Shown here piece after piece: positions 19,804 to 51,877 of a DNA stretch of 64,000 bases. The stretch covers positions 14,304-78,303 of the forward strand of contig JBGPGO010000007.1 of NCBI GenBank assembly GCA_041483895.1, read 5' to 3'. Source of the stretch: Fimbriimonadia bacterium. GTDB taxonomy: Bacteria > Armatimonadota > Fimbriimonadia > Fimbriimonadales > JABRVX01. Positions within the stretch are counted from its first letter, which is position 1. Every line of letters begins with the position of its first letter. Under the pieces are notes generated by a model. The model did no database searches, was not told the origin of the DNA, and was given only the letters and a program-made list of their open reading frames with translations. Made by a program: the position numbers and the translations under genes.

Positions 19804-19879
19804 TCCTCGGTAGCTCAGTTGGTAGAGCAGCTGACTGTTAATCAGCGGGTCGTAGGTTCGAGTCCTACCCGAGGAGCCA
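19804..19879 (+). tRNA. tRNA-Asn: tRNA-Asn (anticodon GTT), CCA encoded
   Basis: TCCTCGGTAGCTCAGTTGGTAGAGCAGCTGACTGTTAATCAGCGGGTCGTAGGTTCGAGTCCTACCCGAGGAGCCA. It has a 7-bp acceptor stem TCCTCGG/CCGAGGA, anticodon loop CT-GTT-AA and a GGTTCGAGTCC T-arm. Confidence 0.95.
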
Positions 19880-19958: not shown

Positions 19959-20147
19959 TTTGGGCGCGGGGGTTTTCCGAGTTTTCCGAGGCTTCTTAAC
20001 GTGCGCGCGAGGCGGAATCGGTTGGTTTGGACCGGAGTGTTCGTTCCTTACATGACTCGCCTCGATCTTCCAGACAGTCGTCGCCGGTCAGGACGCAATC
20101 TAGGAACTTTTCACGCAATCATGTCTGCCTAGGAGGTGGCGCAAATC

Positions 20148-21335
20148 ATGGCGAAGAGACGATCCAATGGCGAAGGAACAATTACGCAAAGGAAGTGCGA
20201 CGGCCGATGGGAGGCTCGGCTGTTCCTCGGCTACATAGGCGGCAAACGAAAGTGGAAGTTCCTGCACGCCGCGACAAAGGAAGTGGCGGTGAAGAAGCTG
20301 CGCGAGGCGCAGGTCCAGCACGCTCGCGGCGTCAACGTCGCACCGGAAAGGCAGACGCTAGAGCAGTTCCTCTGGCGCTGGCACGAAGAGGTCGTGAAAC
20401 TCCGAAACCGACCGAAGACAATTCTCTCTTACGAGCAACTGATCCGCGTCCACCTCGTGCCCTCACTCGGACGCTTCACTCTCCAGAAGCTAAGTCCACA
20501 AGATGTTCAGATGTTCCTCAACGAACGGTATCGCTCCGGCCTCTCGCCCCGGACCGTTCAGTATCTGCGTGGCGTGCTCCGTTGCGCCCTGAACGATGCT
20601 CTTCGTTGGGACCTCGTGCATCGAAACGTGGCAACACTTGCCCAACCGCCAAAGGGCCAACGCAAAGAGATGACGGCGCTTGGACCCGAGGAGGTGAAGC
20701 GCTTCCTCATTGCCGCCGAGGGCCACCGGCTGGAGGGCTTCTTCGCGCTCCTCATGGCGACCGGCATACGACTCGGCGAAGCGCTGGGCCTCAAGTGGGA
20801 GGACGTCGATTTCGACAAGGCGACGTTGACGGTGAGAAAGCAACTCCAGCGCCTGAAGGGTTCCGTATCGCTTATCGATCCAAAGACGGACCGCGCCCTG
20901 CGCACCATCCCGATCGCGCCGTTCGCGATCGAAGCTCTTCGCGGGCATCGCTCTCGCCAACTCGAAGAGCGATTGAGGAATGCGGGCAAGTGGGAAGATC
21001 AAGGGTTCGTCTTCTGCACTCAGGTCGGCACTCCGGCGGATGAGCGGAAGATACGAAACGGCTTGCGGGAGATTCTCAATTCGGCGGGCCTTCCCAAGAT
21101 GCGCGTCCACGACCTTCGCCACACCTGCGCGACCCTGCTCCTCTCGCGCAACGTCAACCCTCGCGTCGTGCAAGAGGTCCTTGGCCACTCGAACATTAGC
21201 CTGACGCTCGGCACGTATAGCCACGTACTGCCGACGCTCGCCAGGGAAGCGGCGGACCAGATGCAGGCGGCCGTTGCAGGCTCGCCGCGCCCCACGGCCT
21301 TGCGACCATCCGGCTCATTTCTAGCCCGGCCATAG
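20148..21335 (+). CDS. tyrosine-type site-specific integrase (phage-integrase family)
   Basis: AGGAGG at 20131-20136 then ATG 20148 (the ORF track starts at GTG 20136). Catalytic blocks are TGIRLGEALGLKWEDVDF (Arg), HDLRHTCATLL (HxxR) and LGHSNISLTLGTYSHV (His...Tyr). It lies directly downstream of the tRNA. Confidence 0.9.
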   Translation: MAKRRSNGEGTITQRKCDGRWEARLFLGYIGGKRKWKFLHAATKEVAVKKLREAQVQHARGVNVAPERQTLEQFLWRWHEEVVKLRNRPKTILSYEQLIRVHLVPSLGRFTLQKLSPQDVQMFLNERYRSGLSPRTVQYLRGVLRCALNDALRWDLVHRNVATLAQPPKGQRKEMTALGPEEVKRFLIAAEGHRLEGFFALLMATGIRLGEALGLKWEDVDFDKATLTVRKQLQRLKGSVSLIDPKTDRALRTIPIAPFAIEALRGHRSRQLEERLRNAGKWEDQGFVFCTQVGTPADERKIRNGLREILNSAGLPKMRVHDLRHTCATLLLSRNVNPRVVQEVLGHSNISLTLGTYSHVLPTLAREAADQMQAAVAGSPRPTALRPSGSFLARP

Positions 21336-21605
21336 AACAATCAAGTGATAATTGCGGACGCATGCCCATGGAGTCGCACAATCTCTGCCGAATTACTTTC
21401 AAGACGCTCGCTCCTAATGGCTGGACGGGTAATAGTGCTTCAGGTTCAAGTTTTGTAGAATCGTCTGCCAAAATCCGCCAAACGGCGCCACCTGCCCCCA
21501 TGTCCGAGTCAGCGGGTAACTCGGTAGGTTTTGAGTACCAATAGCGCCGGTTTGAGCGCGAGTGACACGCAAGTTGACACTCATCGTAGACCGTGCGAAT
21601 CCAAA

Positions 21606-22016
21606 TCACATGTTGCCGTCGGTCATGGAGAACATCTGTCCTCCGGCGTTGTAGCTGTAGGCGCGAGTGTTGCCAATCTGGTCCTTCTCCGTGGCCTTCC
21701 TGTTCATGGAATCGTAGGTGAACGTCATATAGTGGCCGCGCGGATCCCGCACCGTGGTCAAATTGCCCACGTCGTCGTAATAGAGGGTCGTGATCTGGCT
21801 GGCCGCGTCCACCGTGTAGCTGACGCGGTTGAAATTGACATCGTACACCCGCTCCGTCACGTTCCCCATGGCATCGCGAGTGTACCGGAGATTGCTGGAG
21901 TTGTCGTAGGCAAACGTCGTGTTCTTGCCGAGCTGATCGGTGAGCGTGGTCAGCCGCCCCATACTGTCGTATTGCCGGCCGACTGTGTTGCCCAGCGGGT
22001 CTGTCGTGGTCAGCAA
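21606..22016 (-). pseudogene. RHS/YD-repeat fragment (no shell N-terminus, no core, no toxin)
   Basis: 136 aa consisting only of YD repeats (DPLGNTVGRQYDSMGRLTTLTD, FAYDNSSNL, TFTYDSMNR...), bounded by non-homologous sequence on both sides. Confidence 0.7.
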
Positions 22017-22070
22017 ACGCTACTCTTCATCACGAGGAAATGGGCCGAGGTGATAAACTGTCAATTAGCT

Positions 22071-22520
22071 TCATCTTTCCCTTTTGAGGAATAAGATACT
22101 CCACAGACAATAGCCGAAAAGTACAAAGGCAGGTATCCCAAGGAGAGCCACTACAGATGTGTCTCTCGAGGGGGTCTCCGAGAATGCAGTCAATTGCATC
22201 GCGTACAAAATCTCAATTATGGCTACTGGGAAGCACAGGACAAAAGCAGTAATGGGTCCCCAAGCCCGCTCTCGTTGAATTCCGATTCCTGCTATCATGA
22301 GGCCGACGCCCCAGCTCGATAATAATAGTCCGTTTGCGAGGCCGAATCCGGAAGAAAGCCCAAAGATGGGATTAACACCTGTTGCGAGTGCAGTCCAAAT
22401 CATCAGAATGTTCCAACTGACACCGATCAGCATGGCTAATAGTCCAAAGATAGTCGAGTGCCTAGAGAAATCGATTTGCTTTGACAACGGCTCCCCTTTA
22501 GGTCGTGAAGACGACCCCAC
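22071..22520 (-). CDS. 4-TM membrane protein, candidate immunity protein for the upstream Rhs toxin
   Basis: 149 aa with four hydrophobic helices, visibly more AT-rich than its surroundings. It overlaps the toxin ORF 3' end by 23 nt. The immunity role is positional inference only. Confidence 0.5.
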   Translation of the reverse strand: MGSSSRPKGEPLSKQIDFSRHSTIFGLLAMLIGVSWNILMIWTALATGVNPIFGLSSGFGLANGLLLSSWGVGLMIAGIGIQRERAWGPITAFVLCFPVAIIEILYAMQLTAFSETPSRDTSVVALLGIPAFVLFGYCLWSILFLKRER

Positions 22521-23574
22521 CGAGACATTGATTCTTGAGATCTAGGTCATTGCACATATATGCTGCGGTGCAAATTGCTGCCCGCACACACCGTGCCGGA
22601 TCTGGAGTTGAAAGCAAGGAGCATCCCTCATCGATGCAGCTCTTTGCGGCGGCGCACAGTTGCTCATCACACTGAAAAATCCCAAAACTCGAGAACAGCC
22701 CCAAAAATCCACCGACGTCACTATAGCATTGATCGTGGGCCCAGCAGGCCGCATCAATGCAATCTATCGGCTCGCCATATCCTGGATTATTGCCGCCACA
22801 ATAGCGACCATAACGGAAGAAAACATCGCCGGGCCTCCAGAAAACTGGCCCCCAACCCCCTGGTGGTTCCGGTGAACCGGGCCCCCATGGATTGGTCCTC
22901 GGACGCGGTCGTCGTGGTGGTGGCGTGCCGCCACCGAAGATGGGAGGCAACGAAACCCAGATTGGGCTCGGTGCAACAGGGAATCCTGGCGCAAAAGGCG
23001 GTACAAACGGTCCAGATGGTTTGGGCGCCCAAGGTTTGCAGCGAGCGTAATAATTGGAGGCCCATGCATCGCATGCAATATCGCACAGCATTCTGGCGAT
23101 GCCCTCGAGGGAGTTGCACCCCCAACAGAACGTCCAGAGCGCATCGTTCTCGCTCTTGCATGTGACTCCCATTGCGAACCATAACCCACTCGGATCAATG
23201 CCAAATGTCGGTCTGTTATCGACGTACGCGTACAGGTTTTGGCCTCCGGAGTATCCGATCGGATCGGCGGTCTGGAATCTGGCGCGATCAGTAGAGTAGT
23301 AACGCCGGCGAAGGAACTTTAGGCCGGAAGTCGTGCCATCGTCGTAGTAACCATAGCGGCCGATGAACTTGAACGGCGTGTCGTATTGGGCAGGAAGGGT
23401 GTTCGATAGGATATTGCCCCAGGCATCGTACTTGACTTCGCCCCTCGCATTCCCGTCCGTGTCGTAGAGGCCGGTTGTGGAGCCGTCAGCATCGAAGGTG
23501 TAGTAGCTCGCGACGCCGTCCCGTTCTTCCATCAGAAGCTGTCCGTTTGCGTAAATATATTTAACTCCCGCCAT
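22498..23574 (-). CDS. orphan Rhs C-terminal tip: RHS core plus Cys-rich toxin domain with phospholipase-A2-like motif
   Basis: GGAGGAG SD and ATG at 23574. RHS core YIYANGQLL...RRYYSTDRARFQTADPIGYSGGQNLYAYVDNRPTFGIDPSGL, then a Pro-rich linker and YGRYCGGNNPGYGEPIDCIDAACWAHDQCY. The upstream part of the track ORF overlaps the neighbouring gene and is not counted. Confidence 0.8.
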   Translation of the reverse strand: MAGVKYIYANGQLLMEERDGVASYYTFDADGSTTGLYDTDGNARGEVKYDAWGNILSNTLPAQYDTPFKFIGRYGYYDDGTTSGLKFLRRRYYSTDRARFQTADPIGYSGGQNLYAYVDNRPTFGIDPSGLWFAMGVTCKSENDALWTFCWGCNSLEGIARMLCDIACDAWASNYYARCKPWAPKPSGPFVPPFAPGFPVAPSPIWVSLPPIFGGGTPPPRRPRPRTNPWGPGSPEPPGGWGPVFWRPGDVFFRYGRYCGGNNPGYGEPIDCIDAACWAHDQCYSDVGGFLGLFSSFGIFQCDEQLCAAAKSCIDEGCSLLSTPDPARCVRAAICTAAYMCNDLDLKNQCLGGVVFTT

Positions 23575-23731
23575 TATGCCTTCTCCTCCAGCAGGTCTTC
23601 CCCGTCCCAGATCATGGTTCGGATTGTTGTCCCCGGTTCCTGCTTCGTCCTTCGCTTTCCATCCCCGGCGTAAGTATGGCTGCTCCGGGTCCCGCCGACA
23701 TACAGGATCGACACTTGCCGGTCTGCATGCC

Positions 23732-25903
23732 TTACTCGATCCGAATCTCGAATAACCGCATTTCCCCTGCGGCGAGGCGCCCCGTTTGTCCTTGCCACTG
23801 GCCGCTCGTAATGACTGCGCCGCGCGACCTGCCGTCTCCGCCAAACTCCGTCACCCGATACCGCCCGGAAGGCGACTTGAGCCAAGCCGACAGGTTGCAG
23901 GAGAACTTGACAGACCTCGCGGGGCCGTCGTTGACCACGACCATCAGAGCCCGGTCGGGGAGCACGTAAGACGTCAAATGCGCCGGGGACGGCTCCGAGA
24001 GCAGGCACTCGCCGATTAGCACGCCGTCCGTGAAGTACTTCAAGAACCGCTTGCGCAGCGCCGCGCATTGCTTCAATGCCTTGCTGAACGCGGGATGGTT
24101 CACAATCGAATCCGACCCGTTTGTGGACTCGGGCTTGCGCGGCATGACGCACAAATACAGGTTGTCGGCGAACGCCCGCTTGACTGCGAGCGGCGAGGAG
24201 TCGATGCAGTAGTTCAGCCTCGGCGAGGGGAACACGCTCGTCAGCGGGCAGAAGTCCTTGCCCTTGTACGGTCCCCAGTTCCACGTGTAGTCAAGGATGT
24301 TGGAGTCAAGTTCCCAGTTCCGCAGTTCCTCGCCTGAGAAGGTGGATTCCGGGTCGCGCCGCTTGGCATAGGCGCGGATCAGCGACGTCACGGAGTTCAT
24401 GTTGGGCGGCGGGACGTTCGTGGTCAGGTACTGGTCGAAGCAGACCGAGGCCACGCCCAGGTCGATCAGGTGCATGCAACCCTCCAGGATGTCTTCTGCC
24501 CATTTGACGCCCGCAGGCCCTGCCTGCACGCTGGCGAACTGGCTGGCATAACCCGACATCGTTCGCGGGACCAGTTCCGAATGGTAGGTCCAGGCGCCGT
24601 CGCTCGTCACTCGCAACCCGTAGCGGGGCGCTGCCTCCGCGCCTATCAGCAGCACGCCGATGAACGGAACAGCGTTTACGCCGAACTTTTTGCAGGCGGC
24701 CACGGCATCGGCCATGTCCTTCTCGGCGCCGATGTTCGGATACGGCTTGGGCATGGGCCGCTGAAGGTCGTCGCGAAACGACCAGAACATCAGCTCGTCC
24801 AGGCCGTGCTCCTTCGACTCCTTGGCCAGCGCGGGCAGGTCTTTGAACCTGTAGACCGGGTCCTTGGGGTCGGCGGCCTGATACTGCGACATCCAGACTG
24901 TACGGAAGCCGAGCCCTTCGCGAACGTGCTTCGGCACAGGCCAATCGCGCTTGAAATGGGTCTTCGCAAAGGCTCGATACGGCTCGATGCCCTTGGCCCA
25001 GCCGCCAGTGTGCGGGGTCAGCCAGAACTCGCCGCTTTCCCATTTCTCGCCAACGTTGATCGTGGCCGCGTGCAGGACCATCAGGCGGAGCTTCTGCTCG
25101 ACCTCCGAATGCTGGAGCATCACGGGCAACTCGGGGTCCCAGCCCCACCTTCTGGGGAACAGGCTGAAGCCGCCCTTCAGTCCGCCAAAGTCCATCCACC
25201 GGACGATCATGTCGCTAAGGTGCAGCCCGCCGGAAGTGTATTGCACCGAGTACGACGACGAGGGCTGTACGTAGTGCCAGACGCGCGATTCCTCCGTGGG
25301 CGCAAGCTGCACGAACGGCTGCATGCCGAACGCGCAGGTGCGAAAGGTCGTATTGGCCCGCCCTGCGAACGGCAGGAGCCCACTGAAGTCCGGGAAGATC
25401 ACCTGCCGGACCGGGGTCTTTGACCGGTTCTCGACCGTGCATGCCATGATCACCGAGCGCCCGTCCCTGGCTGCCTTCAGCGTGACGGTCGCCGAGACGT
25501 CGCCCTCGACCTTGGCCCAGTCGCGGCTCATGCCGAGCTGGTCCCAGTGGACGGTTACGGCGTCCTTGCTGACGTATATCTTCGCGCCGTGCGAGAAGCG
25601 CGATGCGCGGCGTAACGGTTCGAACTCGTGAATTGGAGTGGCGAGGTCGAGGATCGTGGCCCGTCCGGGCTTGGATCTCAGCATGTCGATCCCAGCGTAC
25701 CGAAGATGCAGGATGCTGCCGGTGTCGGCGTCGAGTGTGATAGCCAGACCGTTGAGGTTTGCGGTGACTGCGCCGGCGTTGCCCTTCCCGATCGCCCCGC
25801 TTGGGGAGGGCCAGGCCGCGGCCAGGGTGAGGAGGCAGAAAAGAGCGCGATTGACGGTGAGGCTCGGGCCGTGGAACATTGCGACCATTATTGCACGGCC
25901 CAC
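23732..25903 (-). CDS. secreted glycoside-hydrolase-like protein (DUF6259-like TIM-barrel region)
   Basis: 723 aa with a signal peptide. The central region is paralogous to part of 59765-63181. Family assignment is weak. Confidence 0.6.
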   Translation of the reverse strand: MGRAIMVAMFHGPSLTVNRALFCLLTLAAAWPSPSGAIGKGNAGAVTANLNGLAITLDADTGSILHLRYAGIDMLRSKPGRATILDLATPIHEFEPLRRASRFSHGAKIYVSKDAVTVHWDQLGMSRDWAKVEGDVSATVTLKAARDGRSVIMACTVENRSKTPVRQVIFPDFSGLLPFAGRANTTFRTCAFGMQPFVQLAPTEESRVWHYVQPSSSYSVQYTSGGLHLSDMIVRWMDFGGLKGGFSLFPRRWGWDPELPVMLQHSEVEQKLRLMVLHAATINVGEKWESGEFWLTPHTGGWAKGIEPYRAFAKTHFKRDWPVPKHVREGLGFRTVWMSQYQAADPKDPVYRFKDLPALAKESKEHGLDELMFWSFRDDLQRPMPKPYPNIGAEKDMADAVAACKKFGVNAVPFIGVLLIGAEAAPRYGLRVTSDGAWTYHSELVPRTMSGYASQFASVQAGPAGVKWAEDILEGCMHLIDLGVASVCFDQYLTTNVPPPNMNSVTSLIRAYAKRRDPESTFSGEELRNWELDSNILDYTWNWGPYKGKDFCPLTSVFPSPRLNYCIDSSPLAVKRAFADNLYLCVMPRKPESTNGSDSIVNHPAFSKALKQCAALRKRFLKYFTDGVLIGECLLSEPSPAHLTSYVLPDRALMVVVNDGPARSVKFSCNLSAWLKSPSGRYRVTEFGGDGRSRGAVITSGQWQGQTGRLAAGEMRLFEIRIE

Positions 25904-26327
25904 CCTCAGCGCGGAGGCAACCGGCGCATTGGAGCCGCCGCGTATCCCGCCTCACCGTGTCCGGTGCGTAGGCCATGGCCTCCACGGCCGCCACTCCGCC
26001 CGGCCAGGCCGCCTTTGCCCGCAACCCGAAACTGGGCGATCAAGCCGTTCACAAGATCGATGCGTTTCAAACGATTGGTAGGGCGAAGATGGAATTGGTG
26101 GTGCGACGTGGAAAGGCGTGCGTGTCGGCAGACGCCAAAATGGCTTCGGCACCATCCAGCGCCTCTACCCACTTTGGCAAGCACGCCATAAGATTGAGGG
26201 CCGGCGCGCCGAGCAGCCAGATCCCCATGCCGGTCCATCCCACAACAAGCACAGAGACGGTGGTTTCAGATTCTTAGGCTGAAAAGAAGGCAGTGCCAAC
26301 CACACCGGCTCGGGCGACCGCTGACTC

Positions 26328-29300
26328 CTAAGGCTGTCTCTCAACTGCCTCTCGGATGGCGGGGACGAAATGCGCCCTGCAGGTGACCTCGACATCAGCT
26401 GCAATGACCGCGGTAACCCGGAGTTGCACCTTGCGGGGGCGCTCATCGGGACCAAGGACGAGGCGCCAGCCTTGCCACGGACTCGGAAAAGTCCATTGCC
26501 CGAGAATAGGAGCCAACCGGACCTCCGCGCCATCGACCGTGCCGGCGGCGGCAAAGAGATTGCCTACGTTTCCAACAGGGACAACCATCTCGTTCCGGTG
26601 CATTTCGACGGTCACGGCAACGATCCCACCGGCCTTTGTGGCCGGGACGGTGCACTCGACCAAAAGGGCACGCTTTGGCCGCTGCACTTTATCTTGATCA
26701 ACCGGCGGCGAAGGAGCCTTCTCAGGGGCAATGGGCTCAACGCGAACCGGCAAGTCGACGCTGGGCTCTGCAAACCGCTGGGACTGTTCATTTCTCGTGA
26801 ACTCGCGTCCTAGCGAAGGCTTGCCGCCCGCTGGAACGAGTTCCAACAAAACGACCTCGAATGGGCTCAGCGCGATCTTTGGCGACTGGGTCGTCGAACC
26901 CAGAAAAGCTTGTGTCGGGTACCACTGATATACTCCCGAAACGCCTTTGACAGCCGGCAACGGAAGCTCGACATTCTGCCATGTGCAGTTGTTCAGAGCC
27001 ACGAAGGCGCGCGCTCCGTCGCTGCACAGATACCCGTAGGGCTCGTGCTTCCACGGATCGCCAAGAACCCGAACGGGATTGGCGAAGCACTTCGGGTTGG
27101 CCCGCATCAGTGCGGCAAAATCCGCGAACTGTTTGCGTTCGGGCTGGGTCATCCAGTCGCGGTCCGACCAGGGCTGAAGCAAGAGGCTGCCCCGGCACAT
27201 GTCCATGACCGTGCCCTCCTGCCAGCGCTCCTTGCCAATCGAGCTGTTAAAGCCCCAATTGGAGAGCCACACTCCAAGGGAGTCCTTTCCAAGCGGCGGG
27301 ACATCCGCACAATAGGCTTGGGCCTGGTCCAGCACGAGCGTGACGCTGTCTCGTGCATAGAGCGACGGGCTGTCGCTGGGGCTGGCGGCCTCTATCCAGA
27401 ACCCTGGCTCGAATAGCGTGTCGGCATGGAGCAGCCACCAGGGCGAGCGGTGTCCCCAATAGAGCATCAGCAGAGCTTCGGGGCACGCTTGGTCCAGTAT
27501 GTCCAAGGTCTTGATGATGCTGTCGTTGATGGCCTCTGTGGAGTAGACGCCAGCCAGGTGACCGTGGTGTGGGTTGTAGCAGATCGGGCAGTTCCCGTCG
27601 AACTTGAGGACGCGGGCGCCGCTTTTCAAGTGACTTAGCGCCGCAGAACGAAGCATCTCTTCGTAGAGTCCTTCCGCCTCACAAAAGATCACCCGGTCGC
27701 CGAGGCCGTAGGATCGATCCGAGTTCAAGCTATCCGATGCAACAGGGTTGCCGGTGATGGACCACCAGTAGTTGGCGGTGTCCCACCACACGCCGTAGGG
27801 AATGCGATTCAGGGCCCTCTTTATCGGGGCAAAGCCGTTCGGAAAGCGCTTGGGGTCCGGGCGCTCCAGGTCGCCGTTTCGATCGATCCAGAGCTCGATC
27901 ATGAACGCGTCGAAGCAGCACCCGGTCTCCTTCTCCGATTCCTGCATCTTCGCGACAAGGTAGAGGTTATCGGCTTCCGTTCCGCCCCAGTAGTCGCCGC
28001 TGGGCCAGCTTCCGAACGTCTCGAAAATGGCGTAGGGCCTGTCATGCCCACGCACGACGCGGCGCATTCGAGACTTGACGTGGGCGAGGAACGCCTGTCT
28101 TGCCTTTCCCGCCGGCGCGACCCCTAAGACAGTCTCCATGCAGTCGAGCCTTTGGCCGGGGGATAGCGCTCTGCCCGGGTATTGGCGCAGGCGAACCGTT
28201 CCGTTCTCCCCCATCGCCCACCCCGAAGGGTGTGCCAGCGACGCGAAGAACTGGCCGTCCAAATACACCGGGAAGCCCTGATCGCCGTCCGAGACCTCGG
28301 CCGAAGTCACGTAGCGAGCGAGCCGAACGTTGAGTACGCGTCTTGTCGAGCGCCCCTTGTTCACGATGCTCACGAACTTGTGCAGGACGGGTTCCGCTAT
28401 TTTCCAGCGGTAGATGACGGTGGCCCGCAGCGCCGGCTGCGCGCTTGACAGATGGACACGGCATTCGCCTGCCGCCCCTTGCGAGATTGTCTCGACCTTG
28501 ACGACTTTCATCGAAGGCGTGATCGTGTGCTTCCCGATCAAGACGTATTGCTCGAACTGCGGAGGCCAGCAAAAACTGTTCTCCAGGCTGTGCAGCTTCA
28601 TCGGATCAACCGCGTCGAGTTCCTTGGTGCGGGCCACGTACCCCGAAAGCTGCAGCGCGACGATATTCTCCCGGCCAAAGCGCAGGCACCTGTATCCGGC
28701 GCTCTTGGGGGTCAAGACGAATTGCCCGGGCTCGGGCCACCGCCCCTGCGTCCTCCTCACGGCGATCTCCTGGCCGTTCACGAAGACGCGCATGTAGCGA
28801 TAGTCGAACAGCCCGAACCCGCCGAGAACCAGCGTGACAGCCTTGCCTTCGGCGTCGCGCGGCAGGAAAACGTGAGTCCGCGCCCAGCGGTATTCGTCGA
28901 ACAGTCCAGACTCCTTCTGCGACGGCAGGAGAACGGTCGTTTGGCCGGACCAGCTGGTGTCGTCATGTTCCGGGAGGTATGCCTTGACTCCATAGCCATG
29001 CTCCTCGTCGGGCCCGCAGGGTTTGTAGCCCGTGTCGATGATCCGCCAGCCGGTGATGGGAATGCGCCTATCCGAAGCGTCGAGGTCCAGTTGCAGCTCT
29101 GGGTTGTTTCCCAACGCCAGCTTCTTACCCGTCAGGCGGTTGATCCAGGCTGTTGCGCGAAGACCATGTGCGGTGTCGAGCTCAAAAACGAACGAAGGGG
29201 AGCGCATTTGTAAAGCGTTTCCATTGAGACCAACCTCGCACTTGGGCGATTCCTTCGCAGTGGCACCCGCATTCCTTGTCCTTGGACCGGTGGCCAACCC

Positions 29301-29363
29301 CGGTGTCGCGAGAACCGCAACGAGAGCCAGCACTGATCCGACCTGTCCAAAACGTATCTGCAT
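26328..29363 (-). CDS. large secreted glycoside-hydrolase-like protein (alpha-galactosidase/GH36-like region)
   Basis: Start chosen at ATG 29363 (MQIRFGQVGSVLALVAVLATPGLA signal). The segment CFDAFMIELWIDRNGDLERPDPKRFPNGFAPI resembles melibiase-type TIM barrels. Assignment tentative. Confidence 0.6.
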   Translation of the reverse strand: MQIRFGQVGSVLALVAVLATPGLATGPRTRNAGATAKESPKCEVGLNGNALQMRSPSFVFELDTAHGLRATAWINRLTGKKLALGNNPELQLDLDASDRRIPITGWRIIDTGYKPCGPDEEHGYGVKAYLPEHDDTSWSGQTTVLLPSQKESGLFDEYRWARTHVFLPRDAEGKAVTLVLGGFGLFDYRYMRVFVNGQEIAVRRTQGRWPEPGQFVLTPKSAGYRCLRFGRENIVALQLSGYVARTKELDAVDPMKLHSLENSFCWPPQFEQYVLIGKHTITPSMKVVKVETISQGAAGECRVHLSSAQPALRATVIYRWKIAEPVLHKFVSIVNKGRSTRRVLNVRLARYVTSAEVSDGDQGFPVYLDGQFFASLAHPSGWAMGENGTVRLRQYPGRALSPGQRLDCMETVLGVAPAGKARQAFLAHVKSRMRRVVRGHDRPYAIFETFGSWPSGDYWGGTEADNLYLVAKMQESEKETGCCFDAFMIELWIDRNGDLERPDPKRFPNGFAPIKRALNRIPYGVWWDTANYWWSITGNPVASDSLNSDRSYGLGDRVIFCEAEGLYEEMLRSAALSHLKSGARVLKFDGNCPICYNPHHGHLAGVYSTEAINDSIIKTLDILDQACPEALLMLYWGHRSPWWLLHADTLFEPGFWIEAASPSDSPSLYARDSVTLVLDQAQAYCADVPPLGKDSLGVWLSNWGFNSSIGKERWQEGTVMDMCRGSLLLQPWSDRDWMTQPERKQFADFAALMRANPKCFANPVRVLGDPWKHEPYGYLCSDGARAFVALNNCTWQNVELPLPAVKGVSGVYQWYPTQAFLGSTTQSPKIALSPFEVVLLELVPAGGKPSLGREFTRNEQSQRFAEPSVDLPVRVEPIAPEKAPSPPVDQDKVQRPKRALLVECTVPATKAGGIVAVTVEMHRNEMVVPVGNVGNLFAAAGTVDGAEVRLAPILGQWTFPSPWQGWRLVLGPDERPRKVQLRVTAVIAADVEVTCRAHFVPAIREAVERQP

Positions 29364-29620
29364 ATCAGCCAACGTTACCAGAATCCGGCGGTTGGCATGT
29401 TCGAGGGTGGTCAAGCGCCCCCCTACGATGTCGTTGTTGCAGTTCCTGGCTCGCGAAGGCATTCAATCAATCGGTACCCGGTCGTTACCAGCAGCGTCGC
29501 GCTAGGAGCGATGGACGCATCGGCTCGTCAGATCATGTTCCTCCATTCCACATAAAGTGAACTTGTAGAGGCGGACCGCCACTAAGATTCGACCACAACT
29601 CCCCGCCATCAAGAGGATGC

Positions 29621-32455
29621 ATGACTCCGATAGAGAAGGGTGTTTCGTCTGATGAGGAGGATGACCGCTTGAGTTCGCTCCATTCGCGCACCATCGTTGC
29701 CTTTTTGGCTGTCTGCGCTTTCGGCCAATCCCTCACTCCGTATCGGGACATGCAAGATATGCCGAAGGCGCTCCGGGCGTACCCGGTTGCGATGCCAAGG
29801 GACATATCGTTTGAGGCGGTAGTAAAGAGCCAACCGTTTCCGGCGATGAAGTACCCGGTGCCGATCATCGGTTGGAAGGAGCATCCCGAGGAGGTGCATG
29901 TGACGCCGAACGGGGCCCTAGTCTTTCCTCGTCCGGGAGTCCCACGAGGTCTGTACCTGACTCCATTTCTCGGCGACGCACCGTTTTCGTTGGAGAAGGT
30001 GAATCGGCACCTTGTTGACGGCTACATGCCAGGCATCGAGAGTGAGTGGTCGGTCAGTGATCTTCGCGTGCGGCAGCTTGCCTTTTGCACGTTGCTCGGC
30101 AGTGACACAGTGAAGACCGGACGGGAGCCGTTGGTCGCGTTCACTCGCTATCGTGTCGAAAATCCATCCAAGAAGAGCCGCACGGTACGACTTTGGCTGA
30201 ATTTTGGGGAAGCGGTCATGGGGCAAAGCATGGCCTCGGTACCACCGCCCTATCTGCGAACCCTTCGCTTCCAGAGACCGTTTGTGATGGAGCCCGAAGA
30301 TACGGTTGCCGCCTGTGTTTTATCTCATGGCAGGGTCGGTTTCCGTCCCCTCTCGCTACCAACCCGGACTGATGACTCTCGTTACACGACCATCAATGTA
30401 CATGGCGAAGCCATGGGGCCGGACGTGCCCATCGACGTCGTGCGCGAGGGAGGTGCGGTGCGAGTAGGCAGGTGGAGATCGGAGCGCGGCTTCGATGTCC
30501 ACATGGAGGCGTCCATGGGCCACAGCGTGCCGGTCGCGGCCGAAGTGGACATCGTATCGCCAGGTGGTGAGATGATCCATCTTGGCACCCTGTATCGCGG
30601 CGGGCTGTCCGAGACCAAGCGGGGCGAATTCATCAAAGCGGGTGAGCACTCTGCACCCATTCCGTGGTCCCTGCTTGCGTCCGTGTTGCCCCAGGGTCCC
30701 AGCAAAATCGTGGTCCGAGGCAGGTATCCGGTGGGTAACGCGGTCGCGCCAGTCGGATCGTGGGAATCAACATTCTATGTGACCGAGCCGGGAGTTCCGC
30801 CAAATTTCAAGCGACCCCTTCGCGGTGATAAGACAGAAAACAGCCTATTTGTCGATCTGCCTCTTCCGCCAAGCGGGTCAGCCACTGTGGACATCGCCAT
30901 CCCGTACTTTCCGCTTGCCCGATCTGCCGCAGCCAAACTCGCTAGCCTCAATCTCGATCATGAACTGAGGCGCTTCCGACGTTATTGGGAGAAGGAACTC
31001 AACCGAAACGCTGAGTTCATCGTGCCCGAAAAGCGAATACGTGACTCCGTTCGCGCCTGCCTTGCGAACAATCTCATACTGACGGATCACGATCCCAAGA
31101 CCGGCCTCCTTTTGATGCATCCGGATGCAACCGCTTACGAAAGTGTCTGGGCCGGTGACAGCGGAGTCATCCTGCAGGCAATGGACCGAATGGGCTATCA
31201 CGCAGAGGCGGCGAGTTGGGCGCGGTTCTTTCTCCGCTACCAGGGCACGCGCAGGCCGGACGGGGCATCGAAGAGCGTCGACGGTTTCTACACCGGGAAC
31301 GCCGGACCCCGATGGATGTGTGAGAACGGCTTCATCCTCTGGGCTCTTTCGGAACACTACAAACTAACCCGTGACGCACGGTGGCTTCGAACGGTTGCGC
31401 CGAGCATGATAAAGGGATGCGACTGGATTGTTCGCGAGCGGGCCGCCACCAAAGGCGATCCGGATGCCCGCCACTACGGGTTGTTGCCGAAAGGTGCGCC
31501 ATCCGATATCGGGGTTTGGGACTATTGGTACTGGACGGACACCTACTCCTACATGGGCTTGCGCGGTGCGGCGGATGCGCTCGCTGATATCGGGATGGCT
31601 TCTGAAGCGAATCGGTTGAGAACGGAGGCCGAAGACTATAAGACGTGCATACGGCGTTCCGTCGAACGGTCCATCGTTAGGGAGGTCTCCCCGCCATTTA
31701 TCCCACCCAGTCCGTACACGAATCAGCCGCCAACCTTCGACCGTCTGGCGTCGTGGTGGTACTCCATCTGCAGCCCCATCTACATGGTGGAAGCAGGCCT
31801 CCTCAGCAAGTCCGAACCGTGGACGGCGGACATCGAGTATTGGCTGGAACGATACGGGTTGTATTCCGGACTGTGCGCGTTTGGCGGCGGATTGGTAGAC
31901 CCACATTACGTGTACAACCAATCGCTGGTTCAACTGCTTCGCGGCGAGACGGACAAGTTCCTCTGGACGTTCTACAGCCTCTTCGCCTATGGCCAGTCGA
32001 GGGACACCTACGCAACCATTGAAGGAATGAACCTCTTGACCGGCTCCAACGGCGATGATTGGGCGGCCAACCGCCAGCCGCACATGCACTCGAACAGCCG
32101 GGTGCTGGACATGGTTCGAATCGCGCTTGTTTTGGAGGAAGGGGACATGCTGCATCTGATGGCGGGGACCCCAAGGGCATGGCAGGCTTCAGGAAAAGTG
32201 ATCGAGGTGCGAAAAGCCCCGACCTACTTTGGTGACGTGGGCTTCAGAAGCGTGTCGTACGGCAAACGGGTCCGTGTGACGATCCAGCCGCCCACCCTTC
32301 GCGCGGCGAAACTGGTCGTTCATATTCGGCCACCTTCCACGGTTGGACCAATCCGTTCCGTCACAGTAAACGGAAGGCCATGGAAGCAGTTCCAAGACGA
32401 AAAAGTGATGCTTGGTGCGCGGCGCTCTAAAACCACCGTCGTATGCAGATTCTAG
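29621..32455 (+). CDS. large secreted protein with (alpha/alpha)6-barrel glycosidase-like C-terminal half
   Basis: 944-aa ORF. An alternative TTG start at 29669 is preceded by GAGGAGG (29654-29660) and gives a cleaner signal peptide. Family tentative. Confidence 0.6.
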   Translation: MTPIEKGVSSDEEDDRLSSLHSRTIVAFLAVCAFGQSLTPYRDMQDMPKALRAYPVAMPRDISFEAVVKSQPFPAMKYPVPIIGWKEHPEEVHVTPNGALVFPRPGVPRGLYLTPFLGDAPFSLEKVNRHLVDGYMPGIESEWSVSDLRVRQLAFCTLLGSDTVKTGREPLVAFTRYRVENPSKKSRTVRLWLNFGEAVMGQSMASVPPPYLRTLRFQRPFVMEPEDTVAACVLSHGRVGFRPLSLPTRTDDSRYTTINVHGEAMGPDVPIDVVREGGAVRVGRWRSERGFDVHMEASMGHSVPVAAEVDIVSPGGEMIHLGTLYRGGLSETKRGEFIKAGEHSAPIPWSLLASVLPQGPSKIVVRGRYPVGNAVAPVGSWESTFYVTEPGVPPNFKRPLRGDKTENSLFVDLPLPPSGSATVDIAIPYFPLARSAAAKLASLNLDHELRRFRRYWEKELNRNAEFIVPEKRIRDSVRACLANNLILTDHDPKTGLLLMHPDATAYESVWAGDSGVILQAMDRMGYHAEAASWARFFLRYQGTRRPDGASKSVDGFYTGNAGPRWMCENGFILWALSEHYKLTRDARWLRTVAPSMIKGCDWIVRERAATKGDPDARHYGLLPKGAPSDIGVWDYWYWTDTYSYMGLRGAADALADIGMASEANRLRTEAEDYKTCIRRSVERSIVREVSPPFIPPSPYTNQPPTFDRLASWWYSICSPIYMVEAGLLSKSEPWTADIEYWLERYGLYSGLCAFGGGLVDPHYVYNQSLVQLLRGETDKFLWTFYSLFAYGQSRDTYATIEGMNLLTGSNGDDWAANRQPHMHSNSRVLDMVRIALVLEEGDMLHLMAGTPRAWQASGKVIEVRKAPTYFGDVGFRSVSYGKRVRVTIQPPTLRAAKLVVHIRPPSTVGPIRSVTVNGRPWKQFQDEKVMLGARRSKTTVVCRF

Positions 32456-36010: not shown

Positions 36011-36946
36011 TCACGCCAGCTCGGACAGCAGTCGGCTCGTCCTGCCCGGCAGGTGTTCCCGTGCATCGTCGTAGATCATCAGCGTCTCCAGTTTGGAATG
36101 GCGGCTGAGCTTCTGCGCGCCGCGCACGTCGCCGTTGGTGGCGTGGAGGTAGGCGGTGATGCTGGTGTGCCGCCACTTGTGCGGACTGAAGTTCTGGATG
36201 CCGGCCTTCTTGGCATAGTGCTTTACCATGAACGCAAGGCCGACGCCGGTGATGCCGGATGGCTGGCCGGCGCAAGAGAGGAACAGTTCCGGTCGGCTAT
36301 CGTTCCGACATGCGAGGTAGTCGCCGATCGCTTCTATGGCCTTATCGCTCAGTGTCATCAGCACCTTCTGAGTCCCTTTGCCTTTGCCACGGACGGCTAG
36401 CGTCTTCGCATCCGGATCGAAGTCGGCCTTCGTCAGATTGCAGATCTCCTGCCTGCGAAGCGCCAGTTCCCAGAACAACCGGAGGATCGCCGCATCGCGC
36501 TTCCCCTTGACGGTAAAGGTGTTCGGCAGCATGAGCATCGCGGCCGCAGCGTCCTTGTCCACGCCCCTGGTGTCTCGATACTGCATTGTCTTCTCGCCCG
36601 GCACCAGTCCCTGCGGATTGACTTCCGTCAGCCCAAGCTGCCGCGCAACGCTCAGAAGCGAGCGGATGGCCGTTAGCCGACGATTGAGGGTCACCTCCGC
36701 CACGCCTTGCTCGATCTGCTGCATCTTGAAGGTGAGCATCGCCCGAACGACGCCGGTCGTCTCAAGCTTGAAGAACGCTCCGATTGTCTGCGGCGTTGGC
36801 TCGCTCCTGGCCACGACCCGGAAGAACAGCCCTAGATCCCGCTGGTAGGCCAGCCTCGTGACTTCGCTCCGCTTGGACTTCAGAAGGAACTCCAGTGCAT
36901 CCGGCGCCACCGGACTCGGTTCTGTAAGTTTGAGTTCAATTGCCAT
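36011..36946 (-). CDS. Xer-type tyrosine recombinase, copy A
   Basis: 311 aa with an N-terminal SAM-like domain (RLAYQRDLGLFF). Catalytic blocks are ELALRRQEI (Arg), GKGKGTQKV (Lys), PHKWRHTSITA (HxxR) and SRHSKLETLMIYDD (His...Tyr). About 90% identical by eye to copy B. Confidence 0.9.
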   Translation of the reverse strand: MAIELKLTEPSPVAPDALEFLLKSKRSEVTRLAYQRDLGLFFRVVARSEPTPQTIGAFFKLETTGVVRAMLTFKMQQIEQGVAEVTLNRRLTAIRSLLSVARQLGLTEVNPQGLVPGEKTMQYRDTRGVDKDAAAAMLMLPNTFTVKGKRDAAILRLFWELALRRQEICNLTKADFDPDAKTLAVRGKGKGTQKVLMTLSDKAIEAIGDYLACRNDSRPELFLSCAGQPSGITGVGLAFMVKHYAKKAGIQNFSPHKWRHTSITAYLHATNGDVRGAQKLSRHSKLETLMIYDDAREHLPGRTSRLLSELA

Positions 36947-48931: not shown

Positions 48932-51877
48932 CTAGTCCACGATGACCGTCTGGTTGGTTTTGGGCGCAGTCGCCGGCCAGAGGAGCTTTTTGCCATCAGC
49001 CGTCCGAGCCACGATGTAGTACTCGAAATCCTCCTGCGCCGCAGGCAGTGTCGCCTGGTATACCGCGCGGCCCAGATGCCGGAGCTCGATCCTTTGGAAC
49101 TGCCCTTTGCCGAGCGGGCGAAGGCACAAGTACGCTTCACTCGCCGGCAAGTTGTCAAGGATGGCCACACGGAGCGCGAGTGATTCCCCTTTGCGCGCTT
49201 GAGTGCGCACGGTCGGCACAACGATGCGCGTCGCGCCGGCGTAGTGGTTGGACGGGGCGGCATCAAGAGGAAGCGGTCTTTCGAGAGCCGCCGTGATCTC
49301 ATTGTCGTAGGCATCGAGCGTGTGCATGGTACGGCGGCTCTGCATCTCAAAATTTGCTATCGTGCCTAATTCCCCGGGGGTGTCACAGGCGGCGGCCTGG
49401 TATGTCATCAACTCCTCCCAGGCGCGCGCTATGGCGACACGAGACACCAACGCGTCGGAAGCCAGTTGCTTCCGCTTGGAGGTATCCGTCTCATTCTTCA
49501 GCGCCGCCGCCGCCCGATCCAACTCCGCCCGCAGGCAGCCCACTCGCGCAATCGCTTTGACTGCGCGATAGGTGTTGAGCCAGTAGTCGAAGCGCTCGAG
49601 ATTGCCTGCTCCGCGTACGCGGGAACGCAGCTTAGCGAAGGACTCGACGAAGGCGAACTGCTTTTGGACGGTCTCCCACGGCACTCCGTTCGGCAAGATT
49701 CCTCCCGGACCGGTAATCCAGTCCGTTACTTTCGGCATATTCAGTCCGTCTACCGAAGCCATTATGGCAGCGGCGGCGACTGCGACTCCCGCCCCAAAGT
49801 TTGCTCGCGCAAAATCCTTGTAGAAATCCGCATCCGGCATCCCACGGTCCTTGCCCGCGGATGGGATGGCACCGACTACCGTGTCGGCTTCATAGCCCTC
49901 TACCTTACCGCCGCCGCAGTTAATCTTTCGGCTGAACGCCGTGCCTGTGTTCGTTCTTCCCTCAATCACAATCCCGGCTATGCACGGGAACTCGACTTGA
50001 CGGACGAATTCGATCCGGAGTGGATCGGCACTGACTTCGATGTCGTGAAAGACGTAGTCGAGGGCCTTGTTCCGGCCCACCTCTTTGAACACATCCAAGG
50101 TATCGATCACTGTCTTGCCTTGCAAGCGCACGCCAAACACGCGCTTACCTATCGCATCGTGGAACGGCTCATTGAATTGCAGTCTCACACGGTACGTGCC
50201 GTTGGGTACCGAAAGGCGATAGCCGTCCATGTCGTATCGGACAGTCTGGTACACGCCCACTTCCTCGGTACCGGTAACCGGCTCTGTAAATACGGCAGCG
50301 TTCCCACCAACCGCTCCGTCCTTTGTCATTTGAGGTTTCCAGGACTTGGCGAAGAAGTTCGCGGGGACCCACGATTGATCCCACGCTGCGGCCGATAGGG
50401 CGGAAACATTTAGCATCATTGCTTTGGTGCGCCAATGGATGCCAAGCAGCCCTGTGCATCCAAGCCGCCGTGCGTCGGCGGCATCGTACCGCATGCGCGC
50501 CACCCAAGGCTGAGGCTGAGTCAGCATCGGATCGTTTTCCATCCATGGTATAGCCCATTTTGGACGCCCCGCAATATCCGCGAACGCGGGTTCGACAGGA
50601 TCATGTCCCACCTGGCGATTAATGCAACTCATGGGAGATGTCTTCGGCAGAATTCGGTCAAGCGCAGTTCGGTCGTTCTGAGGTCCAAGAACCCACCCGC
50701 ACGTCGCCAGTACGAAAGGGTTCCCAAGGCATTGTAGAGCAGCAAGGGCCGCGCGTATGTCGCTTGTGGTAGCATCCAACCGCTGCTTGCTGTTGCCGCC
50801 CCACGTCCAATCCTCCGGCGTCCACAGCCAGTAGTAGTCCACCGGGCAGGCCCGTGAGATTCGCATGAAGATCCCCTCGTATATCTCCTGCACCGTATTT
50901 GGATCGCCAGGGTCTCTTCCAAGAGCTTTGAGCCGCTCGCGCACGACGGTGGGAATGGTTAGCGGCGTCTCCGTGCCAACACATGTTTTCACACCCAACT
51001 GCTTCGCCCGTGAAAACACGATGCGCATCATCTCGCCGACGCGCCTGAACAGCTCATTGGATTCCGTGGGAGTGGCTGGGCGTGGCATCAGCCCGGTCTG
51101 CGAGTAGTTGCCATAGCCGTCTTGCGCGAAAAGCAGCGCCGCGCCGCCCGCAAACTCTGAGGTTGCAACAGGGGCATACCCCCACGTGCCCTTCGTCGTA
51201 TTGGCCCACGCGGACGGATAGCTGAACTTCACCCCTCCCCGCTCGTCGCAGTCCGAGGGGCTCCCGATCCACACCAGCGGCTCCGGACCAACGCCGCCCT
51301 CCGGGTAGCAGTGAAGGCCCAAAAAGTTCATTCGCATCTTCGGCAGTTGTTCTACATACGCAAGGTAGTCATCCTGATCCCACCAGTCAGGGCCTTCTGG
51401 GAAGTCGTGAAATGGCTGAATACCTCGTATCGTGAACAACGGCGTTGCCGTCTCGTTGAGGTGGGGAAGGGCATATGCGATCCTCTCGTCCGGAATCACG
51501 TCGCCGTGCAGATAGAATCGCACACCCAGTTTCTCGGCGAAACGATACGCACCGTACAGCACGGCGACATCGCTCCCTCCGCTGATCATCAAACTCCCGC
51601 CTCTCGTTTTCAGACGAAATTGCTGCGGCGAGAGAGCAGGATCCACGCGCAGAACGATTCCCGTGGCGTGTGAGACGCGCGGGACTATTCGCAGCAGCTT
51701 CCCTGTCCGGAGGTAGACGTAGCGCCTTACCTCTCGCGCAGCCAGCCTGACGTTTGGAGAGGCGCCGGCGGGACAGACGATCACGTCCCCGGAAACCATC
51801 GCAACGCAGGCAACCGCCGCCAGGACTAACGGCAACCCAAAGTGCGACTTCGTTCTTTTCCATTTGCATGTGTGCAT
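48932..51877 (-). CDS. secreted glycoside-hydrolase-like protein with malectin-like carbohydrate-binding domain
   Basis: 981 aa with a signal peptide. It has an N-terminal GH20b/GH67N-like segment (VAVLYGAYRFAEKLGVRFY) and a malectin-like segment (YRVRLQFNEPFHDAIGKRVFGVRLQGKTVIDTLDVFKEVG). Confidence 0.7.
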   Translation of the reverse strand: MHTCKWKRTKSHFGLPLVLAAVACVAMVSGDVIVCPAGASPNVRLAAREVRRYVYLRTGKLLRIVPRVSHATGIVLRVDPALSPQQFRLKTRGGSLMISGGSDVAVLYGAYRFAEKLGVRFYLHGDVIPDERIAYALPHLNETATPLFTIRGIQPFHDFPEGPDWWDQDDYLAYVEQLPKMRMNFLGLHCYPEGGVGPEPLVWIGSPSDCDERGGVKFSYPSAWANTTKGTWGYAPVATSEFAGGAALLFAQDGYGNYSQTGLMPRPATPTESNELFRRVGEMMRIVFSRAKQLGVKTCVGTETPLTIPTVVRERLKALGRDPGDPNTVQEIYEGIFMRISRACPVDYYWLWTPEDWTWGGNSKQRLDATTSDIRAALAALQCLGNPFVLATCGWVLGPQNDRTALDRILPKTSPMSCINRQVGHDPVEPAFADIAGRPKWAIPWMENDPMLTQPQPWVARMRYDAADARRLGCTGLLGIHWRTKAMMLNVSALSAAAWDQSWVPANFFAKSWKPQMTKDGAVGGNAAVFTEPVTGTEEVGVYQTVRYDMDGYRLSVPNGTYRVRLQFNEPFHDAIGKRVFGVRLQGKTVIDTLDVFKEVGRNKALDYVFHDIEVSADPLRIEFVRQVEFPCIAGIVIEGRTNTGTAFSRKINCGGGKVEGYEADTVVGAIPSAGKDRGMPDADFYKDFARANFGAGVAVAAAAIMASVDGLNMPKVTDWITGPGGILPNGVPWETVQKQFAFVESFAKLRSRVRGAGNLERFDYWLNTYRAVKAIARVGCLRAELDRAAAALKNETDTSKRKQLASDALVSRVAIARAWEELMTYQAAACDTPGELGTIANFEMQSRRTMHTLDAYDNEITAALERPLPLDAAPSNHYAGATRIVVPTVRTQARKGESLALRVAILDNLPASEAYLCLRPLGKGQFQRIELRHLGRAVYQATLPAAQEDFEYYIVARTADGKKLLWPATAPKTNQTVIVD

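Follow-up and report, generated by a model that had tools for sequence, protein, structure and literature searches.

Orphan or truncated tips of rhs genes that are accompanied by immunity genes are well documented, and the retention of immunity and service as a reservoir for recombination are known behaviours of such modules (PMC5727410; bioRxiv 10.1101/2025.05.08.652813); orphan modules of an rhs C-terminal toxin region and its immunity gene (rhs-CT/immunity), and the displacement of C-termini, were described by Jackson 2009 and Koskiniemi 2014, as summarised in the same two sources. A phospholipase A2 (PLA2) domain, Tox-PLA2, has been listed among the polymorphic-toxin tips with RHS repeats, with Planctomycetes among the carriers (Zhang et al. 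2012, PMC3482391). Tox-PLA2 is defined on a Streptomyces-type fold (PDB 1kp4) with the motifs DxC[ST] and CxxHxxxYxN, and no immunity family is recorded for it (PMC3482391). Here we analysed 64,000 nucleotides of contig JBGPGO010000007.1 from a Fimbriimonadia bacterium (the window), an uncultured sediment bacterium, in which the 3′ remnant of an rhs gene ends in a domain of the secreted PLA2 (sPLA2) type and is followed by a gene for a small membrane protein; this cassette lies at the far end of a low-GC islet of ~3.9 kb with tRNA-Asn, a tyrosine integrase gene and rhs debris.

The locus resembles the orphan rhs-CT modules in that a 5′-truncated rhs gene retains the 3′ part of its shell and core, including the DPxGL motif, together with a variable tip and a small downstream gene, and has no delivery domain. 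Unlike the classic orphans, which sit directly downstream of a full-length rhs gene, it has none within 64 kb, and it also differs in its place at the end of a tRNA-Asn/integrase islet, in an additional frameshift and in the mid-shell YD fragment that stands, unconnected, on the opposite side. The likely explanation, in our view, is that the locus is a 5′-truncated and frameshifted remnant of an rhs polymorphic-toxin gene that has been left as an orphan-type toxin/immunity cassette. What survives, besides ~175 shell and core residues split by the frameshift, is the complete C-terminal toxin region and the gene downstream. As a gene the cassette is ordinary, since the evolution of rhs genes is well known to leave behind orphan or truncated tips together with immunity genes. 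Its features are as follows (positions are those of the window).

22498 to 23574, reverse strand: open reading frame (ORF) of 358 residues, ATG at 23574, stop at 22498-22500; the rhs 3′ remnant, from the last repeats of the shell through the Rhs core to the C-terminal toxin region
23182 to 23574, reverse strand: residues 1-131, final YD repeats and Rhs-associated core (NF041261, TIGR03696), ending in the autoproteolysis-type motif DPSGL
23035 to 23181, reverse strand: residues 132-180, first Cys-rich module with six Cys (139, 150, 153, 164, 168 and 179)
22831 to 23037, reverse strand: residues 180-248, Pro-rich linker with 24 Pro and 10 Gly in 69 residues
22501 to 22830, reverse strand: residues 249-358, secreted-PLA2-type domain with 12 Cys (profile, profile-profile comparison and predicted fold)
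23577 to 23714, reverse strand: Rhs-shell remnant of 46 codons in another frame (VSILYVGGTRSSHTYAGDGKRRTKQEPGTTIRTMIWDGEDLLEEKA, then a stop), whose terminal TAA overlaps the ATG of the 358-residue ORF
23574 to 23578, reverse strand: frameshift junction TAATG, where the stop of the upstream remnant overlaps the ATG
22071 to 22520, reverse strand: ORF of 149 residues with a GTG start and four predicted transmembrane helices (hydropathy and AlphaFold2, AF2), candidate immunity protein
21606 to 22019, reverse strand: mid-shell fragment of YD repeats with 137 open codons and both ends missing (Pfam RHS_repeat, TIGR01643)
20136 to 21335, forward strand: tyrosine integrase, convergent to the rhs remnants (Pfam Phage_integrase, E=3.1e-29; Phage_int_SAM_3, E=4.3e-11)
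19804 to 19879, forward strand: tRNA-Asn (GTT), 256 nt upstream of the integrase and its probable integration target (ARAGORN)

The Rhs-associated core was identified by TIGR03696 (Rhs_assc_core) at residues 49-131 of the 358-residue ORF with 54.1 bits against a cutoff of 32.5, and the ORF also matches positions 1158-1261 of the 1261 in NF041261 (RHS_core). The end of the core reads ...ADPIGYSGGQNLYAYVDNRPTFGIDPSGL, with the DPxGL cleavage motif present, and the core is 36-45% identical to those of full-length and orphan Rhs proteins from metagenomes. In a public protein collection the product is the called gene P0001, which is found on two more JGI metagenome contigs with 100% identity to the window. 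The ~175 surviving residues of shell and core, in two frames, compare with ~1000 or more in full-length Rhs proteins, and a first-pass annotation of the sequence had correctly described a tip without the YD shell. The N-terminus of the ORF, MAGVKYIYANGQLLMEERDG, is not hydrophobic, and nothing in Pfam or NCBIfam matched it as a delivery or secretion domain.

The same annotation had taken the ORF for a stand-alone gene with its own Shine-Dalgarno sequence and ATG, starting directly at the RHS core. GGAGGAG does lie 8-14 nt upstream of the ATG, but the reading as a gene start did not hold. In the other frame, the 46 codons 5′ of the ATG run collinear to the final shell repeats of full-length relatives, and to the shell end of relatives such as L036; the local alignment of this upstream fragment scores 55, whereas shuffled sequences score 24.6±4.3 and none of 2000 reached 55. 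Relatives from the metagenome scan are continuous over the same stretch (...VQVNLPNGSTVVYSYDHSGKRIAKTAGGVTIDYYFDGDDLITEAQG-ANILAYYTQGQ...), and the window sequence is exactly one residue short of them across TAATG, consistent with a deletion of 1 nt. The ATG is thus an internal Met of a longer ancestral rhs gene, exposed by a 1-nt frameshift, and GGAGGAG merely the codons for Leu-Glu-Glu-Lys. Even with the frameshift repaired the gene is 5′-truncated, because rhs homology stops by ~23714-23730 and the upstream 723-residue gene ends at 23732, which leaves at most ~50 rhs codons 5′ of the ATG. An assembly error in a single data set does not account for the frameshift, since Logan contigs X1, X3 and X4 from three independent sediment metagenome runs span the site with 100% identity and no indel; a contig of a fourth run covers the rest of the locus, also at 100% identity, so that the four sediment metagenomes show no population variation here. 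The case illustrates that a plausible Shine-Dalgarno sequence and ATG can be a frameshift artefact in a gene remnant. The relatives L035-L042 have the same orphan-type short open frames, and a search with the core read-through gave two weak, uninformative matches. One X4 contig joins 19829 to 24186, from the interior of the tRNA to the inside of the 723-residue gene, with 4356 nt skipped; we considered it as an empty-site allele and rejected it, as it has only 20 nt on one side and falls inside a gene, and it is probably a chance or chimeric joint.

These results bear on whether the 358-residue protein, made from its own ATG, could be a functional stand-alone effector delivered through a carrier encoded elsewhere or by another export route, which we regard as improbable. 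The ORF is intact and preceded by the SD-like GGAGGAG, it keeps Tyr52, the His-Asp pair and the greater part of the Ca loop, and the downstream gene is intact as well. Short tips that combine DPxGL with PLA2 and lack an Rhs shell occur elsewhere (P0041, P0042/L033 and, with a signal peptide, P0005), and in other bacteria some of the orphan Rhs toxins are both produced and active (PMC5727410). The ATG, however, is the internal Met of the ancestral ORF, with shell-homologous codons going on upstream in the other frame, and the SD-like string is coding sequence for L-E-E-K. Moreover, the protein has no signal peptide, PAAR, VgrG-binding or other delivery domain, and no gene of a type VI secretion system (T6SS), VgrG or PAAR family was found among the 36 larger ORFs of the window that were scanned, which agrees with the first-pass annotation; a domain with six disulfides is also unlikely to fold in the cytoplasm.

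The region after DPSGL is built as had been noted, with two Cys-rich parts (six Cys at residues 139-179 and 12 at residues 259-350) on either side of a Pro-rich linker. For the first module an exhaustive HMMER search (1.84 billion representatives, E≤1e-3) returned no credible relative, its one match being a repeat protein over 25 residues, and there was no match in the related loci that were fetched. A phmmer search of the last 118 residues against the PDB gave 134 matches, and all 60 of those listed are PLA2s (best E=1.7e-4), in line with the sPLA2 signature that had been read from the sequence. The exhaustive search yielded 57 relatives, nearly all covering the last domain only, whereas a word-index search with the 228-residue C-terminal region returned only the window's own proteins. 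From 35 of the 57 we built a family alignment (A1), in which G256, C259, G260, D271, D274, C277, H280, D281, C283 and C302 are invariant and Y255, P269, A276, L306, C307 and C341 nearly so. Its profile matched the PDB 140 times, again with all 60 listed matches being sPLA2s (best E=1.1e-11). Pfam PF00068 is matched by 33 members of the alignment (best E=1.5e-11) and PF08398 by 15, and PF09056 by none of the 35 (E≤0.01) nor by the single protein (E≤1).

Profile-profile alignment with bovine pancreatic PLA2 by hhalign gave a probability of 98.1% (E=1e-13, 46% identity over 35 columns) and placed residues 252-288 on bovine F22-K56, pairing Y255 with Y25, G256 with G26, Y258 with Y28, C259 with C29, G260 with G30, D271 with D39, D274 with D42, C277 with C45, H280 with H48, D281 with D49, C283 with C51 and Y284 with Y52. 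The AF2 model computed on A1 (predicted local distance difference test, pLDDT, 84.3; predicted template-modelling score, pTM, 0.78) has helices at 28-44, 52-71 and 82-96. The top 13 Foldseek matches to this model in the PDB are all PLA2s, with the rice group XI enzyme first (probability 1.0, template-modelling score 0.47-0.51), and pancreatic PLA2s match it locally at 1.6-2.9 Å over 39-43 residues. By profile, profile-profile comparison and predicted fold, the tail is a genuine domain of the secreted PLA2 type, and its PLA2 motif lies well outside what chance would produce.

The Ca-loop sequence YGRYCGGN occupies residues 255-262 and the His280-Asp281 pair lies in CWAHDQCY (residues 277-284; codons 22732-22737), both H and D being invariant in 35/35 sequences. 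A partner for the catalytic His is found in a conserved C-D-x-x-L-C segment, where the position after the invariant Cys302 is D in 24/35 and N in 8/35; on this conservation and on the antiparallel helix geometry, Asp303 is most likely the equivalent of Asp99. Val330, which a first pairwise phmmer alignment had put in the place of Asp99, was ruled out when the family alignment assigned the conserved acidic position to Asp303. The sequence profile, on the other hand, aligns the C-D-x-x-L-C helix with bovine C91-C96 and not with C98-D99, and the Asp99 equivalent is therefore not securely aligned; in the Ca loop, Asn takes the place of Gly32 and an insertion of two residues precedes G33. These changes would suit a catalytically inactive domain that binds membranes or forms pores, as Lys49 myotoxins do. 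We think this very doubtful: the equivalents of His48, Asp49, Tyr52, Tyr28 and Gly30 are all present, and Asp49, the residue lost in the inactive sPLA2 myotoxins, is kept in every one of the 35 aligned sequences. The Ca2+ ligands of sPLA2s at positions 28, 30 and 32 are backbone carbonyls, so a change of side chain at 32 should be tolerable.

The domain shares with Tox-PLA2 its place, a PLA2 fold as the C-terminal tip behind RHS repeats, but differs in having the canonical YGxYCG Ca loop and CxxHDxCY and in its match to PF00068/PF08398 and not PF09056. The Tox-PLA2 motif CxxHxxxY is present, with SD and not xN after the Tyr, and DxC[ST] is absent, with YCGG instead. The best structural match, over ~112 columns, is to plant group XI PLA2 (rice; PDB 2wg7/2wg8/2wg9), which is likewise a small helical sPLA2 with the same core of Ca loop and His-Asp; identity is only 22-26%, however, and the bacterial domain stands behind an Rhs core and a Pro-rich linker, has the family-specific C-D-x-x-L-C helix and follows another Cys pattern with no equivalent of Cys44. 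Alignment with the animal group I/II enzymes (bovine and porcine pancreatic, elapid venom) is residue for residue in the Ca loop and helix 2, whereas the N-terminal helix and the β-wing are lacking, the connection between helix 2 and helix 3 is short, there are 12 Cys against 14, and Gly32 is Asn beside the 2-residue loop insertion.

Judged by its sequence, the tip belongs to an under-described branch that is like the canonical sPLA2s and different from the Streptomyces-type Tox-PLA2. A DPxGL-type motif stands just before the YGxYCG loop in ~40 of the 57 relatives, several of which have YD repeats upstream, and the domain is thus a recurrent Rhs toxin tip. A genome scan with a trimmed 8-sequence alignment as the query located 32 loci. 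Copies fused to Rhs occur in Planctomycetota/Pirellulales, Anaerolineales, a deltaproteobacterium (1192 residues) and Geothrix (>1700 residues), more divergent ones at the end of ~2000-residue proteins of Acidobacteriota, and secreted stand-alone copies in Methylobacterium, Microvirga, Peptoniphilus, Corynebacterium and others. Small proteins that start with 'MxYDGPxGMxLDLVGxSPDGVDL' and carry DPxGL and PLA2 with no Rhs core or shell upstream (P0041 and P0042/L033:3464-4102) may have a different short N-terminal module. We tentatively suggest, with some way to go before it could be called probable, that canonical eukaryote-type sPLA2 domains form a sizeable uncharacterised family of bacterial polymorphic-toxin tips, distinct from the Streptomyces type and with unrelated immunity solutions. 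If so, the cassette would be the first testable PLA2/immunity pair of the canonical-sPLA2-like class of tips, and the family would have a bearing on the origin of the eukaryotic sPLA2s.

The ORF directly downstream on the same strand had been proposed as the immunity gene, and its position and its multiple transmembrane segments are as described. It has four hydrophobic segments by hydropathy, and the AF2 model from the single sequence has helices at 18-46, 59-83, 87-113 and 117-148, at a pLDDT of only 61.7. Its GC content of 0.489 is the lowest in the cassette and makes it AT-richer than the neighbouring 723-residue gene (0.635) and the window (0.58). The reported overlap of 23 nt with the 358-residue ORF stands if the GTG at 22520 is the start; the start is uncertain, as the public gene call begins at the ATG at 22433, which gives 120 residues and no overlap with the toxin ORF, and neither start has a Shine-Dalgarno sequence. 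No Pfam or NCBIfam family matched the 149-residue ORF, and a word-index search with it brought back nothing but proteins of the window itself.

Other PLA2 tips have other neighbours. In three Planctomycetota loci the tip is directly followed by a PD40 (WD40-like) β-propeller of ~300 residues with an N-terminal anchor (L005:2790-3809, L006:483-1424 and L033:4164-5072), and we propose these PD40 proteins as a conserved candidate immunity family for the PLA2 subfamily of L005, L006 and L033. In Geothrix a 102-residue protein with three transmembrane helices (L029:5180-5488) follows the Rhs-PLA2 protein and is like the 149-residue protein in kind, not in sequence, and in other loci signal-anchored proteins follow the tip; none of the proteins downstream of related tips resembles the 149-residue protein. 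Variety among downstream partners is normal for polymorphic toxins, and here it offers no independent support for an immunity role of the 149-residue protein. The differing partners (four helices, three helices, PD40 β-propellers) suggest several independent ways to neutralise one class of enzyme. The L006 locus also has a second, minimal orphan tip (1439-1822, start 'MNSPANGVDPSGL') with an unrelated Cys-rich C-terminal region, followed by a 121-residue protein with four transmembrane helices (1838-2203), and shows that orphan arrays with small multi-transmembrane partners occur in Planctomycetaceae.

From its position, strand, tight spacing, low GC and four helices, the 149-residue protein has an even or somewhat better chance of being the immunity factor. 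It may instead be a small membrane protein of no relation to the toxin, or the ORF may be spurious, with the true immunity gene lost or elsewhere, a possibility we rate lower but take seriously: the protein has no homologue and no family match, its start is uncertain and lacks a Shine-Dalgarno sequence, the related tips pair with PD40 β-propellers or other proteins, none of them similar, and an immunity family for Tox-PLA2 is not on record (PMC3482391). Yet the ORF lies immediately downstream on the same strand, overlapping or abutting the toxin stop, it shares the low GC of the cassette and has four clear hydrophobic helices, and small multi-transmembrane proteins stand behind other tips too (three helices after the PLA2 tip of L029, four after the second orphan of L006). 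A membrane or periplasmic immunity protein would also be expected for a toxin that attacks membranes.

We propose the following mechanism for the full-length ancestor. The YD cocoon would have enclosed the unfolded toxin until a cut at DPSGL set it free; the toxin would then fold with six disulfides in an oxidising compartment, either the periplasm of the target cell or outside the cell, and hydrolyse membrane phospholipids at sn-2, with His280 and Asp303 as the catalytic pair and with Asp281 and the YGRYCGGN loop as the site that binds Ca2+. The four-helix membrane protein, as the most likely cognate immunity factor, could act at the membrane by binding the toxin or shielding the lipid. The T6SS effectors Tle1-5 with their Tli partners are interbacterial toxins that attack the phospholipids of membranes from the periplasm, and immunity proteins located in the envelope neutralise them. 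The likeness is a functional analogy only: the Tle proteins have unrelated folds (α/β-hydrolase or phospholipase D) and are not Rhs tips, and the large ORFs of the window include no T6SS genes. The present 358-residue product would be undeliverable on its own because it has no shell, delivery domain or signal peptide, and in the reducing cytoplasm it would probably not fold. Its present value, if any, might be retained immunity against kin with the full-length toxin, or that of a reservoir tip for recombination into a full-length rhs gene elsewhere. In the literature that we searched we found no experimentally studied Rhs-PLA2 toxin, and since no immunity protein is recorded for Tox-PLA2 either, the toxin and candidate-immunity pair can be put directly to the test.

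A number of observations weigh against the reading as an orphan-type toxin/immunity cassette, or against parts of it, in addition to the altered Ca loop, the alignment of the C-D-x-x-L-C helix and the PD40 partners described above. On the single protein PF00068 reached E=0.0016 and 19.4 bits, below its gathering threshold of 32.1, and PF08398 reached E=0.017, also below gathering; the Foldseek E-values are weak (0.02) despite the probability of 1.0. For the membrane protein, 5.8 billion clusters yielded no homologue. No full-length rhs gene lies within the window, in agreement with the first-pass annotation, the sole other rhs sequence being the 137-residue fragment, and the metagenome scan for a full-length rhs sharing the core found none above 45% identity and did not return the source contig itself. 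The 358-residue ORF is intact, with all catalytic residues and the SD-like GGAGGAG, and its expression is possible; no RNA runs holding the locus were found. At the islet boundary, no direct repeat of the tRNA end of at least 10 nt was present in 21300-26000, and the only other copy of tRNA-Asn sequence in the window, an exact 45-nt copy of the 3′ half from the anticodon loop to the CCA-proximal end (47223-47268, reverse strand, against 19835-19879, forward strand), is inverted and 27 kb away. An att-like repeat should be direct, and the inverted copy therefore points to an inversion or to a second integration with rearrangement. We likewise rejected an attR in direct orientation near 23715-23735, where no repeat of at least 10 nt was present.

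Several of these points would also fit a pure relic, in which both ORFs would be neutral leftovers of an rhs locus that was destroyed, carried on an integrative element in decay and without a selected function, be it immunity or that of a reservoir. The two unconnected rhs fragments, the frameshift and the 5′ truncation, the want of an attR direct repeat and of a full-length rhs gene nearby, and a membrane ORF with no Shine-Dalgarno sequence, an ambiguous start and no relatives found all speak for such decay. Apart from the frameshift at the 5′ end, however, 358 and 149 codons are free of stops and frameshifts, and the 18 Cys and the His-Asp pair, residues that random decay would wear away, are complete; we hold a relic to be unlikely. 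The contigs, 100% identical, sample a single population and contain no variation from which selection could be read in either direction.

The orphan-type cassette that we favour lies in surroundings which the first-pass annotation had passed over, namely the YD fragment at 21606-22019, the adjacent integrase and tRNA-Asn. The YD fragment matches Pfam RHS_repeat in five stretches (E=1.8e-19) and TIGR01643 (E=8e-16) and corresponds to positions 488-694 of the 1261 in the RHS_core model, i.e. mid-shell; it sits between the membrane ORF and the integrase with no connection to the Rhs tip, which indicates scrambling in an older rhs locus. The integrase adjoins the 3′ end of tRNA-Asn, as expected for a tRNA-linked integrative island, and the stretch from 19880 to ~23720 is poorer in GC than the gene beyond (0.49-0.60 across the locus). 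The stretch has the appearance of a small integrative islet that has decayed and carries rhs debris as its cargo. A scan for promoters and terminators gave counts no higher than in shuffled sequences.

The wider window holds an RND (resistance-nodulation-division) efflux pump, a fucosidase, ABC (ATP-binding cassette) transport, a type I restriction R subunit and STAND NTPases. Three tyrosine recombinase genes occur in the 64 kb, the integrase at 20136-21335 (forward strand) and two XerC/D-like genes with a Phage_int_SAM_1 domain at 36011-36946 (reverse strand) and 52265-53212 (forward strand). A defence-type gene cluster at 39740-48509 comprises an adenylate-cyclase/STAND NTPase with two TPR proteins upstream, the type I restriction R subunit (41818-44784) and an ORF with a weak PIN domain (44988-45440); the cluster is next to the inverted tRNA fragment, and between 44 and 48 kb the GC content falls to 0.52-0.54. 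Three large ORFs have no Pfam match, of 723 residues (23732-25903, reverse strand), 1044 residues (26328-29462, reverse strand) and 944 residues (29621-32455, forward strand), and the first two have no NCBIfam match either. Together with a large ORF at 48932-51877 that has a Malectin domain, they may encode uncharacterised glycan-active proteins.

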